Virus record (IMG/VR): IMGVR_UViG_2529292910_000006
DNA: 7,942 nucleotides
DNA from: a virus
Taxonomy: Duplodnaviria > Heunggongvirae > Uroviricota > Caudoviricetes
Direction: 5' to 3' (one strand)
Numbering within the stretch: position 1 is the stretch's first letter; each line of letters opens with the position of its first letter. Made by a program: the position numbers and the translations under genes. The notes beneath the pieces were generated by a model. It was not told where the DNA came from, made no database searches, and worked only from the letters and a program-made list of their open reading frames with translations. Shown piece by piece: positions 115 to 7,942 of the stretch.

Positions 115-489
115 ATGCTCATAGATTTGGTTTTACCTTACCCGCCGACGGTGAACACTTACTGGCGACGCCGTGGCAGCACATATTTTATCTCGGAGGA
201 GGGAAAGCGTTATCGCCGGGCTGTGGCGCTTATTGTTCGCCAGCAGCGGCTGAAATTAAGCCTGTCCGGAAGGCTGGCGATAAAGGTGATTGCAGAGCCA
301 CCGGATAAGCGTCGTCGCGACCTGGACAATATCCTGAAAGCACCGCTGGATGCGCTGACGCACGCGGGGTTGTTAATGGACGATGAGCAGTTTGATGAAA
401 TCAATATTGTACGTGGAAAGCCAGTATCTGGTGGACGTCTGGGGGTGAAGATTTACCCCATAATGCTTGAAGGGCAGGTCAAAAAATGA
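115..489 (+). CDS. rusA: Holliday junction resolvase RusA (crossover junction endodeoxyribonuclease)
   Basis: 124-aa ORF with AAGAGG ribosome-binding site at 103-108 and ATG at 115. The N-terminal LPYPPTVNTYWRRRG and the acidic catalytic block PDKRRRDLDNILKAPLDALTHAGLLMDDEQF match my recollection of E. coli RusA ([23 protein letters not shown]). Its TGA overlaps the next gene's ATG (ATGA at 486-489). Confidence 0.9.
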   Translation: MLIDLVLPYPPTVNTYWRRRGSTYFISEEGKRYRRAVALIVRQQRLKLSLSGRLAIKVIAEPPDKRRRDLDNILKAPLDALTHAGLLMDDEQFDEINIVRGKPVSGGRLGVKIYPIMLEGQVKK

Positions 490-1306
490 AACTGGAAGAT
501 TTACCGAAATACTACTCCCCAAAATCCCCTGGCCTGACCGATGCATCGGCCTCAACGTCAAAAGATGCGCTGAGTATCACTGATGTGATGGCCGCGCAGG
601 GCATGACACAGAATCGGGCTGAGATGGGGTTTTCTGCGTTCCTTGGGAAAATGGGCATTAGTATGAATGACAGAGAGCGGGCAACAGAATTGCTGACAGA
701 ATATGCACTCAGTCGGTGTGATCGCGTGGCGGCGTTAAGAAAACTCCCGGCAGAAATAAAACCGGCAGTAATGCGTATTATGGCTTCGTATGCGTTTGAA
801 GATTATGCCCGTAGCGCGGCGAGCAAAAAACAGTGCCCCTGCTGTCACGGAAAAAATTTATTGAAAGCGAGGTTTTTACAAACAAGATCCAGTATCCGGA
901 TGGTAAGCCGCCAGTGTGGGCAAAGTGCACAAAAGGCGTGTATCCGTCTTACTGGGAGGAATGGAAAAAAGTCAGGGAGGTGGTAAAAGTTGCCTGTCCG
1001 GAGTGTGGAGGGAAGGGAGAGGTATCCACTGCCTGTAAAGATTGTCGTGGGCGCGGTGTTGCCATTCATCGTGAAGAGTCGGAAAAACAGGGTGTGCCGG
1101 TTTTCAGAAACTGTCAGCGTTGTGGTGGGCGTGGCTATGAAAGATTACCTTCAACGGAGGCATTTAATGCCATATGTAATGTAACCGATGCCATATCTCT
1201 TGATACATGGAAAAAAACAGTTAAACGTTTTTACGATACGCTGGTGGTGCAGTTTGATATTGAAGAAGCATGGGCAGAACAACAACTGAAAAAGGTGACC
1301 AGATAG
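486..1306 (+). pseudogene. Lambdoid late antiterminator Q-like protein with CxxCxGxG zinc-finger repeats, interrupted by a -1 frameshift in an A6 tract (851-856)
   Basis: Sits directly after rusA and before a late-promoter/terminator pair. The N-terminal part (frame 0, MKLEDLPKYYSPKSP…CPCCHGK) turns into R/S/Q-rich translation after about 855, while frame 2 picks up from about 857 (KFIESEVF…CPECGGKG…CKDCRGRG…CQRCGGRG) and runs to TAG at 1304-1306. One extra A in the run at 851-856 would give a single ORF of about 272 aa. Alternative reading: two overlapping genes, 486-986 and 833-1306. Confidence 0.6.
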
Positions 1307-1311
1307 CTTTG

Positions 1312-1339
1312 TTGATTTTTCCCGAATCTGTGGTAAATT
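1312..1339 (+). promoter_or_regulatory. Candidate late promoter (pR'-like): -35 TTGATT, 16-bp spacer, extended -10 TGgTAAATT
   Basis: TTGATT at 1312-1317, TG at 1331-1332 and TAAATT at 1334-1339, immediately downstream of the Q stop and about 50 bp upstream of an intrinsic terminator. This is the canonical position of pR' in lambdoid phages. Confidence 0.45.
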
Positions 1340-1386
1340 TGCCCTAACGATGGGCGTTTTATGCCTGACGTTAGAAGATTTTTACA

Positions 1387-1409
1387 CCCGTCGCCAGGCG
1401 GGTTTTTTT
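1387..1409 (+). terminator. Rho-independent terminator (tR'-like) downstream of the late promoter
   Basis: Stem CCCGTC (1387-1392), loop GCCA, stem GGCGGG (1397-1402) with one G-U pair, followed by T7 (1403-1409). Confidence 0.6.
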
Positions 1410-1531
1410 ATGACTGAAATCACGCCAGTACAGTAAACGCGCTGGTGGCGGTGAATACCGGTCTTTCAGCTTGCTGGCTTTTTTGACAAGAGTTATTGGT
1501 GTGTCACGTTAACCGGAAAAGGGAAAAAGAC

Positions 1532-2856: not shown

Positions 2857-3143
2857 CACCACACTTATCTGCCCTGACTCTCTTTTGCGGGCTTTTTATT
2901 ACAGGAAAGACACCGGACAGTGAAATGTTAAATGCCTCACAATTCAGGCAGTTGACTGTTGCCTGACATGCTGAGCGTTTGTTAAAAAAATCCTGCATGA
3001 TGAATCCCCCTGAGCGGCGGGGCATAATGACAGATGTTTGGTTGCGTATTGTATAGGCAAGTTGCGGATTCTGTCTGGTCATTGCAGAATTCACCGGGAG
3101 GCACCCGGCATCATGCTGTATACAGAGATTAGGCATATATCCA

Positions 3144-3168
3144 GGCTCCTCATCGCAGGAGCCTTTTT
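3144..3168 (+). terminator. Rho-independent terminator (+ strand)
   Basis: Stem GGCTCCT (3144-3150) / AGGAGCC (3157-3163) with loop CATCGC, followed by TTTTT. Confidence 0.55.
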
Positions 3169-3174
3169 ACATGC

Positions 3175-3199
3175 AAAAAAAGCCCGAGTGGGTTCGGGC
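3175..3199 (-). terminator. Rho-independent terminator (- strand), forming a back-to-back pair with the + strand terminator
   Basis: On the minus strand: GCCCGA, loop ACCCAC, TCGGGC, followed by T7 (seen as A7 at 3175-3181 then GCCCGAGTGGGTTCGGGC on the + strand). Confidence 0.45.
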
Positions 3200-3259
3200 A
3201 ACAGCATGAGATACTTGCATTGTCATTTTTATCGTGTGGATTTTAACCAGGGTTTATAA

Positions 3260-6246: not shown

Positions 6247-6327
6247 ATGAACCATGAAGAAATGAATCAGCGCTTCAGTCGTCTGGAAAATGAAATTGCT
6301 GAACTGAATAAAAACTGTCGGCGCTGA
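6247..6327 (+). CDS. Very small ORF (26 aa) coupled to the downstream gene by a TGATG overlap; coding status uncertain
   Basis: ATG at 6247, 3 nt after the holin stop (MNHEEMNQRFSRLENEIAELNKNCRR*). Its TGA at 6325-6327 shares an A with ATG 6327 of the next ORF. Confidence 0.3.
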   Translation: MNHEEMNQRFSRLENEIAELNKNCRR

Positions 6328-6803
6328 TGCCTTCTGAAGATGAAAAAAAACGCCGCGATGAGCAGTTTGCTGCGTTTGACGATTATTGTCGGAAAGTGAT
6401 GAGCAGAAATCTCGCAGAGTGTTTCAGTATTCATAATGATAATTTCAGTGAGCTGGAATGGGAGTGTAACCGGCCATCCTTTGTTGTATCCGGTGATGCT
6501 GGGAAAATAACCATCTCAGAAAATGGGAAAGTAACACCTCCATCGCACCAGCACAGTGAGGAGCTCATTGAATTTGCCATTGATTACCTGAAGAACAATA
6601 AAAAGCAGGGGCTGATGAAGCGCGTTGGCCGTTGCATGGGATATCTTCAGGTAGCCGCTGAGATTGAAGCGCTGGCCAGTGGTGCTGATAAGGATGCAAT
6701 TGTGCGGGAGGCTCTTCTTCGTGATTTTAATACTCCACCCTTTAAAAAAGTGCCGGCTTACTGGCTTCATCCGGGGCTGACTTATCTTAAAGTGCGTATT
6801 TAG
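6327..6803 (+). CDS. Hypothetical protein (158 aa) located between holin and endolysin
   Basis: Uninterrupted ORF with non-repetitive composition (MPSEDEKKRRDEQFAAFDDYCRKVMSRNL…). An A8 tract at 6343-6350 sits in codons 6-8. No family recognised. Confidence 0.55.
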   Translation: MPSEDEKKRRDEQFAAFDDYCRKVMSRNLAECFSIHNDNFSELEWECNRPSFVVSGDAGKITISENGKVTPPSHQHSEELIEFAIDYLKNNKKQGLMKRVGRCMGYLQVAAEIEALASGADKDAIVREALLRDFNTPPFKKVPAYWLHPGLTYLKVRI

Positions 6804-6839: not shown

Positions 6840-6980
6840 ATGAACACCAAAATCAAATACGGCCTGTCGGCTGCCGTTCTGGCGCTGATTGCCGCTGGTG
6901 CGCCTGCGCCTGACATTCTCGACCAGTTTCTGGATGAAAAGGAAGGTAACCACACCACGGCATACCGTGATGGCGCGGGT
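6840..6980 (+). pseudogene. R: SAR endolysin (lysozyme R) 5' fragment, truncated after about 47 codons
   Basis: MNTKIKYGLSAAVLALIAAGAPAPDILDQFLDEKEGNHTTAYRDGAG matches the N-terminal signal-anchor-release region of Stx-phage/phage-21-type endolysins as recalled (…YGLSAAVLALIAAGA…DQFLDEKEGNHTTAYRDGAG). After about 6980 the frame becomes unrelated and stops at 7014-7016. Confidence 0.75.
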
Positions 6981-6985
6981 ACACC

Positions 6986-7942
6986 ATGCAGGTTGAGCCG
7001 GGGCGTTATCGTGTGACCCTGTGCGTGGAAGGCCGTCAGCCGGCATGCGCTGGCGAGATTGACGTCATGGCAGACGACGAGCCGGGCACACTGAATGCGT
7101 TTTTGCTGCGTGAGCAGGACAGCACTTATTACCCTGAGTCGCTGAAAAAACTGGAAGACGCGGCGGATGCGGCTGTCAGCAGGGCAGAGGAAGCGGCGAG
7201 GAAAGCGGAAACGGCGGTTGGGCCACAGGGACCGAAAGGCGACACCGGAGCAACGGGGCCGCAGGGACAGAAGGGGGACAAGGGGGATACAGGCCCACAG
7301 GGGCCAAAGGGGGATAAAGGAGACAAGGGCGATAAGGGGGATAAGGGAAAAGAGATTATTGCAGTACGAAATGCAGCCTGCAACGAATACGGCGGGATAA
7401 ACTGTGAGGTGCAGTTTGAAGATGCGGTCAATGAAAAAGGAGAGCAGGTATGGCTGCCGTATACCGCAACGGAAACGGATAATACAGAACACGGAAAAGC
7501 CTTGTGGTCGGGGCTGACAGCAGGAACATACGGAAGTGTGAGTGCCTTTGTTGCCACGGAAGCAATACTGGAAGCGGCAAAGGCGGCGAAAAGGGAAGAG
7601 ATTAATATCTGGCGTGATGTGCAGGAGAATATGGAATACGTGATGGAATTCAACGGAAGGAACTGGGATTACGGCAAGAAGACGTTGTCCAGGATAAGCA
7701 CGACACGACTGATGGCAGAGAACAACCGTCTTCCGGAAGGGTTTGCCTGGACGGACGGGGATAATAATGTGGTGCCGGTAACGGCGGCGGAGATAATTGC
7801 GCTGGCAGATGCGACAGAGCAGGCGATGTTTGCGAAAGGTGTGGAGATTAATACACGTCAGCTTCAGATGAAAGCAGAGGTTGAGGCGCTGACAGAGCTG
7901 AAGGCGATCCGCAGTTATGTTGTCGGATGGCCTGCAAGCTAG
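6986..7942 (+). CDS. stf: Side tail fibre protein, 5'-truncated remnant (318 aa from the first ATG) with collagen-like Gly-X-Y repeats
   Basis: EPGRYRVTLCVEGRQPACAGEIDVMADDEPGTLNAFL aligns with lambda Stf residues around 55-95 as recalled (EYGQYSVILQVDGFPPSHAGTITVYEDSQPGTLNDFL), so the homology starts mid-protein. Fourteen Gly-X-Y triplets follow. The frame is open back to 6971 and runs to TAG at 7940-7942, with no ribosome-binding site of its own. Confidence 0.7.
   Translation: MQVEPGRYRVTLCVEGRQPACAGEIDVMADDEPGTLNAFLLREQDSTYYPESLKKLEDAADAAVSRAEEAARKAETAVGPQGPKGDTGATGPQGQKGDKGDTGPQGPKGDKGDKGDKGDKGKEIIAVRNAACNEYGGINCEVQFEDAVNEKGEQVWLPYTATETDNTEHGKALWSGLTAGTYGSVSAFVATEAILEAAKAAKREEINIWRDVQENMEYVMEFNGRNWDYGKKTLSRISTTRLMAENNRLPEGFAWTDGDNNVVPVTAAEIIALADATEQAMFAKGVEINTRQLQMKAEVEALTELKAIRSYVVGWPAS
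7220..7354 (+). repeat. Collagen-like triplet repeat (Gly-X-Y, 14-15 units, including four GDK in tandem) inside the tail fibre gene
   Basis: GPQGPKGDTGATGPQGQKGDKGDTGPQGPKGDKGDKGDKGDKGKE, with a 9-bp periodicity of GGnGAnAAG-type units visible in the DNA. Confidence 0.9.

Follow-up and report, generated by a model that had tools for sequence, protein, structure and literature searches.

Among the described systems closest to the gene considered here, the Q antiterminator of phage lambda is known in structural detail (PDB 4MO1 and 7UBJ-7UBN; Pfam family PF03589). Residues 1-44 of Q-lambda form a torus, or nozzle, within the RNA-exit channel, residues 61-113 and 153-207 form a four-helix body with a helix-turn-helix (HTH), and residues 114-152 form a zinc-ribbon arm (PMC9388147). 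A nearer relative by sequence is the quuQ product (WP_000762902.1) of EHEC lambdoid and Stx prophages, an intact form of 273 residues carried by O157:H7 PV15-279, the Stx2a phage Stx2_EH1910, and mEp460. Sites of dnaX-type -1 ribosomal frameshifting, of frameshifting in IS elements, and of transcriptional slippage provide a third point of reference.

The window, the whole stretch of 7,942 nucleotides analysed here (IMG/VR record IMGVR_UViG_2529292910_000006), corresponds to positions 2-7943 of contig AIFZ01000018.1 (GCA_000249675.2). It carries a Q gene whose reading frame breaks at a run of six adenines. A first-pass annotation listed decay, a sequencing error, and programmed slippage as causes, naming decay first and deciding between none of them. 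The comparisons described below shift that order: the loss of one A is probably a homopolymer undercall in a 2012 draft consensus and not a feature of the DNA of the cell, decay is a less favored reading, and programmed slippage is all but excluded.

A Lambda-type Q Gene Written in Two Frames

The Q gene lies at 486-1306 on the plus strand. It measures 821 nt here, whereas intact copies measure 822 nt (273 codons), and it is frameshifted as written. The upstream open reading frame (ORF; 486-986, plus strand, 166 amino acids) contains codons 1-123 of native Q, equivalent to residues 1-113 of lambda Q plus a first Cys motif, CPCCHGK (834-854). Its native part stops at ...KKQCPCCHGK, and a 43-residue out-of-frame tail follows from 855. 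Native Q continues in the -1 frame at 857-1306 (plus strand) with the rest of an insertion, the zinc ribbon, and the HTH half of the body, ending at a TAG stop codon (1304-1306). The ORF in that frame (833-1306, 157 amino acids) resumes Q as KKFIESEVF... and contains CPECGGKG (995-1018), CKDCRGRG (1034-1057), and CQRCGGRG (1112-1135). The first of these is the second Cys motif of the insertion, and the other two make up the lambda-type zinc ribbon. The distribution of the motifs, with CPCCHGK before the break and three more in the other frame, is as the first-pass annotation had described it.

The identification of the gene as a Q antiterminator is borne out by several comparisons. Both ORFs match Pfam PF03589, "Antitermination protein Q" (E values of 2e-22 and 5e-30), and the product obtained by restoring one A matches the same family with an E value of 5e-52. 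That product is 273 residues long rather than the 272 first reported. The ORF at 833-1306 additionally matches the DnaJ CXXCXGXG model. In a phmmer search of the PDB, restored Q matches 7UBM_Q with an E value of 1.1e-41, as well as the solved lambda Q structures 4MO1 and 7UBJ. Residues 1-113 of restored Q align with lambda Q 1-113 and residues 182-273 with lambda Q 116-207; the homology spans both the N-terminal part (torus and body) and the C-terminal part (arm and HTH body). The Cys4 zinc ribbon is present, with CKDCRGRG and CQRCGGRG aligning with CRDCHGTG and CGRCKGVG of lambda. An uninterrupted frame that includes both body halves and the arm is what the gene lacks, as the shortening of the run from A7 to A6 puts the sequence out of frame from codon 124. 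Taken as it stands, the gene is either a pseudogene or contains an assembly error. For annotation, the two ORFs should be merged into one Q gene flagged "frameshifted/possible sequencing error."

The Q subfamily found here has an insertion of 66 amino acids at the junction of body and arm (residues ∼114-181; window 834-1135), which adds an extra pair of CxxC motifs for a total of four DnaJ-like motifs of the CxxCxGxG type. The frameshift falls ten codons into this insertion. The four motifs suggest, from their sequence, an arm with two zinc sites; a search for a structure or description of a Cys-motif insertion in the Q subfamily returned none. The two matches to PF03589 were also considered as the product of an internal duplication with a frameshift between the repeats. 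BLASTP found the halves similar only at a CxxC motif, and the idea was dropped because the alignment with lambda identifies them as the N- and C-terminal parts of Q.

The Late-control Region

The surroundings of the gene are those of a late-control region. Upstream, rusA, encoding a Holliday-junction resolvase (115-489, plus strand; phrog_34, E value of 4e-55; annotated as RusA in relatives), overlaps the start of Q by 4 nt and is the usual gene 5' of Q in these lambdoid prophages. The cognate cis unit is present 3' of Q, consisting of a late promoter, a pause element, and a terminator. Alignment with lambda PR' places a PR'-like late promoter and candidate Q-loading region at 1312-1351 (plus strand), with a -35 element TTGATT (1312-1317), an extended -10 element TGgTAAATT (1331-1339), and a -10-like pause element AACGAT (1346-1351). 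The block GGTAAATTTG.C..AACGATGGG is common to lambda PR' and the window in this alignment, and both the -10 hexamer TAAATT (1334-1339) and the pause element are invariant. A consensus promoter scanner did not call the site, which has 8 of 12 matches. A tR'-like intrinsic terminator at 1386-1410 (plus strand) has a 7-bp stem (1386-1403) followed by T7 and, to judge from the sequence, is the first terminator that Q would have to override. Farther downstream are a small phrog_331 ORF, an AraC-type regulator, three tRNAs, nanS-p, DUF1378, DUF826, and a class II holin. The region is the standard late control of an EHEC-type lambdoid prophage.

Several other features were observed in this segment. 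The AraC-family regulator (1865-2578; phrog_1450; PF12833) sits in a moron slot where most related prophages have a DNA methyltransferase, and a promoter-like site, ATGATA-16-TATAAT, lies just 5' of it at 1802-1829. The tRNA cluster (2607-2856) contains a CAT tRNA followed by Arg-TCG and Arg-TCT. The CAT tRNA is called Met by ARAGORN and Ile in the annotation of relatives; it is probably of the lysidine-modified Ile2 type. Between the tRNA cluster and nanS-p, Rfam identifies the STnc100 sRNA (176.7 bits) at 2966-3174 on the plus strand and, abutting it on the minus strand at 3175-3234, the anti-GcvB sponge sRNA AgvB (56.6 bits, just over the gathering score).

Loss of One Nucleotide from an A7 Run

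At the break the window reads TGC CCC TGC TGT CAC GGA AAA AAT TTA, with the six A's, the site of the one-nucleotide loss, at 851-856 on the plus strand. Aligned with the Q gene of O157:H7 PV15-279 (WP_000762902.1, 273 amino acids), the window gene differs by one missing A and one silent G>A. The only gap in that alignment is 1 nt inside the A run, which is A7 in relatives and A6 in the window. A split at this run that needs a -1 shift to rejoin the halves, as first proposed, is thus what the intact genes point to, and full-length homologues do span the junction, with WP_000762902.1 and the mEp460 protein each encoded in one frame. By alignment, the frame break is a real discontinuity relative to homologues and not a chance pattern of ORFs.

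The shorter run is rare among closed genomes. Of 5,426 closed E. coli genomes searched by megablast with 486-1306, 2,495 contained the gene, and the top alignments covered 822 nt against the 821-nt query. A 71-nt probe around the A run matched exactly in one closed record only, and a 38-nt probe with A6 matched in two closed genomes only, MLI104K2 and UM146. When run length was compared across related genomes, then, A6 was present in 2 of the 953 closed E. coli genome records that carry the Q segment and A7 in the other 951. Run lengths were read from the match spans of a 72-nt A7 probe in 60 evenly spaced records of the 953. In this sample 58 aligned over the full 72 nt, with 57 spanning 72 nt (A7) and one, UM146, spanning 71 nt; no A8 variant, which would span 73 nt, occurred among the 60. 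A7 is, on these counts, the normal and stable state of the run. Full-length alleles that are more divergent, such as those of E. coli E2 and the viable phage mEp460 (∼88% nucleotide identity), have GGGGAAAAATTT at this place, read as GGG GAA AAA TTT (G-E-K-F), with A5 inside a single continuous frame of 273 codons. Since these divergent intact alleles have no long run, neither the A run nor the two-frame layout is conserved.

The same comparisons bear on the idea that 486-986 and 833-1306 are two separate overlapping genes acting as a split Q. Each half does score alone as PF03589, and both halves are predicted by gene callers. However, a pair of genuinely separate conserved genes, the arrangement that the first-pass annotation had set against its own reading, was not seen: the close and distant homologues examined all consist of one 822-nt ORF. 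In addition, the 43-residue tail of the first ORF is out-of-frame Q sequence, and a split at this point would cut the four-helix body known from Q-lambda into parts interleaved with the arm (PMC9388147). Nor were two conserved ORFs, with starts and stops that compensate for the break, seen in diverged relatives. A split Q is the least probable of the readings weighed here.

Recurrence of A6 in Draft Genomes

Draft genomes present a different picture. The AIFZ accession falls within the range of the DECA collection, a set of 76 E. coli drafts published in 2012. An exact look-up of the 166-residue product returned 12 contigs, draft or Logan; most are either drafts whose assembly accessions are early or Logan assemblies of runs with early SRA numbers. 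Between them they represent at least six different Q haplotypes with A6 and no fewer than three prophage contexts. The protein cluster of the 166-residue product shows the same truncation in DEC3D, DEC3F, DEC10C, 2534-86, and UM146; in DEC10C a fusion to RusA comes on top of this. Within the DECA set, A6 is present in at least 6 of the 76 drafts (AIFM, AIGG, AIFZ, DEC3D, DEC3F, and DEC10C) as against 2 of 952 closed genomes (odds ratio of at least 41, Fisher p = 3e-6). When one A is removed in silico from the Q gene of the closed DEC5A genome (NZ_CP038394.1), which has A7, the result is identical to the 166-residue protein in the DEC3D and DEC3F draft records.

A sequencing error is favored because A6 turns up repeatedly, on many haplotypes, among 454-era drafts, whereas closed genomes almost never have it. 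Sequencing on the 454 platform characteristically miscounts homopolymers. In a sister project, the same sequencing center in the same period assembled 454 Titanium reads with Celera (PMC3491183). From this we infer a technical cause: the locus would be one ordinary antiterminator gene of the Q-lambda type, its 273-codon frame cut where A7 reads as A6, with the undercall carried into the consensus of the DECA draft contig AIFZ01000018.1. Logan assemblies of raw runs reproduce A6, which implies that most reads must carry A6 and that such an undercall would be systematic rather than random. A6 also appears in two later-numbered Logan runs, SRR12123271 and SRR30595124, and in the recently deposited closed genome MLI104K2, where PGAP calls the gene "frameshifted." These occurrences suggest that the mutation may be real at low frequency.

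Further one-base contractions of homopolymers interrupt conserved genes in these drafts, which adds to the case for an undercall. The 185-codon gene between the holin and lysozyme genes (6247-6803, plus strand) has A5 at 6310-6314, whereas two closed genomes have A6; the contraction breaks the gene and leaves an ORF at 6327-6803. In a related draft contig (L007), A7 to A6 at position 7277 splits a DUF968 gene, and in another (L004), further single-base homopolymer contractions split conserved genes at 14180 and 15429. Not all such differences are errors, since those at 1379 and 1734 of the window are common to a closed genome and are thus ordinary polymorphisms. An intergenic run at 1763-1770 is G8 in the window and G9 in the closest closed genome, the window being again the shorter. 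Closed status does not guarantee correct run lengths either, because the closed E. coli OkiPb01678 genome (L003) has two homopolymer frameshifts, one in rusA by GGG to GG (L003:3115-3488) and one at an A9 run in the 185-codon gene (L003:9293-9851).

The undercall, if such it is, has little biological weight. Its interest is as a reminder that, in drafts from the early years of pyrosequencing, a frameshift at a homopolymer can mimic a pseudogene or a recoding site.

Possible Decay of Q in a Prophage Remnant

It is also possible, if less probable than an undercall, that replication slippage truly converted A7 to A6 and thereby turned the Q gene of a decaying prophage remnant into a pseudogene. 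Slippage in A-runs is the commonest route to a frameshift, which counts in favor of this reading. The prophage is plainly incomplete. A deletion scar joins the first ∼47 codons of the endolysin gene R (6840-∼6981) to the C-terminal ∼270 codons of the side tail fiber gene stf (6986-7942), the fusion occupying 6840-7942 on the plus strand with its junction at ∼6981-6986; the stf part after the junction is the collagen-repeat/C-terminal region. The R/stf deletion of the first-pass annotation is thereby located. Rz, terminase, and the head and tail genes are missing from the prophage, and chromosomal ykgJ-like and potB genes lie within 1 kb past the end of the remnant. The R::stf junction was sought in closed E. 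coli genomes and none had it, as all matches end at 6981 or begin after it. The loss of everything from the middle of R to the middle of stf is as expected under relaxed selection, and so is the frameshift in a second late-region gene. Since the prophage is already a deletion remnant, Q is dispensable there and selection to keep it would be weak. PGAP's annotation of the closed MLI104K2 genome, where a Q gene with this lesion is called a frameshifted pseudogene, points the same way.

Weighing against a pseudogene, the identical lesion occurs on at least six haplotypes, is concentrated in one early draft set, and is all but missing from the closed-genome records (2 of 953). The late-control region, moreover, has kept its cis sites intact: PR', the pause element, and tR'. 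Only one silent base accompanies the lost A, so the Q gene shows no other sign of decay.

The consequences would follow from the structure of Q. Taken literally, the 166-residue product would retain the torus-forming N-terminal segment and one half of the four-helix body, but the arm with its zinc ribbon, the HTH, and the C-terminal helix would be missing. By analogy with the Q-lambda structures (PMC9388147), a product lacking these elements would be unable to bind the Q-binding element at PR' or to load onto RNA polymerase in the paused complex. Transcription from PR' would then stop at the terminator at 1386-1410, and any expression of the downstream morons and holin would have to come from promoters of their own or from readthrough. 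A dead Q with late genes on their own promoters, as the first-pass annotation envisaged, would thus apply only if A6 is real in the cell. In that case a crippled remnant would have lost its late-gene antiterminator as well, a routine step of prophage decay.

Improbable Readings: Programmed Recoding and Phase Variation

A further proposal is that A6 is tolerated or even programmed. Full-length Q could be made from the A6 copy by -1 ribosomal slippage on A_AAA_AAT or by insertion of an A by the polymerase, either giving a low, tunable level of Q, or the A run could serve as a phase-variable on/off switch. GGA AAA AAT does hold a formal X_XXY_YYZ heptamer, A_AAA_AAT (851-857), with AAA (852-854) and AAT (855-857) as zero-frame codons, and A6 recurs in several lineages. 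However, the shifted layout is derived and rare (2 of 953 closed-genome records), and mEp460 and other divergent intact alleles have GGGGAAAAATTT, with no long run and with one frame. A stimulatory RNA structure was sought 3' of the run and none was found, the 83 nt at 858-940 folding with -16.7 kcal/mol against a shuffle mean of -16.8 kcal/mol (z = 0.04). The 15 nt 5' of the run (CCCTGCTGTCACGG) likewise show nothing that resembles a Shine-Dalgarno element. In the A site, tRNA-Asn re-pairs poorly on AAA, and efficient transcriptional slippage in E. coli is known for runs of about nine or more, longer than the A6 here. Among the hallmarks of a -1 frameshift site, then, the heptamer is present, whereas downstream structure, an upstream Shine-Dalgarno element, and conservation of two frames are not. 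Phase-variable or slippage-prone runs are typically 9 or more nt long and vary in length both ways; this run is 6-7 nt.

Programmed recoding is highly improbable on this evidence. Nothing appears to be programmed at the A run, as the intact copies are single ORFs and the run is not conserved in distant functional alleles. A weaker variant, in which the A7 run of this widespread EHEC/EPEC prophage Q allele is a mutational hotspot acting as a reversible off-switch for the late genes, with A6 partly rescued by slippage or stuttering, is hardly more credible. If true, it would affect late-gene expression and, in Stx phages, the toxin too.

Comparison with Known Systems

Whether artefact or mutation, the lesion is of an ordinary kind, and nothing in it is new. 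The likeness to dnaX-type frameshifting sites, IS elements, and transcriptional slippage sites lies in an A-rich heptamer, A AAA AAT, that is correctly phased. In contrast to those sites, the one in the window is neither followed by a hairpin or pseudoknot nor preceded by a Shine-Dalgarno-like stimulator, it is not conserved, and its run is shorter.

The resemblance to lambda Q extends to the zinc-ribbon Cys pairs (CKDC/CQRC in the window and CRDC/CGRC in lambda) and to the setting of the gene, which in both cases comes after rusA/nin and before a PR'-like promoter sharing GGTAAATTTG..AACGATGGG, with a tR'-like terminator following. The window Q differs from that of lambda in the 66-residue insertion with its extra CxxC pair, and it is inside this insertion that the frame is broken.

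For the lesion itself, a parallel is NL420_RS13955 of E. coli MLI104K2, annotated as frameshifted by PGAP, in which the identical change from A7 to A6 affects the same codon. That gene is nevertheless of another Q haplotype (75 nucleotide differences) and lies in another prophage, so its A6 represents an independent event or an independent error.

The quuQ prophages share with the window rusA upstream and the phrog_331 ORF, tRNAs, nanS-p, and class II holin downstream. The window differs from them in having lost one A of A7, in having an AraC-type regulator in place of the DNA methyltransferase moron, and in the truncation of its prophage after the holin region. In the Q gene itself, the O157:H7 copy of quuQ is identical to the window at 820 of 822 bases.
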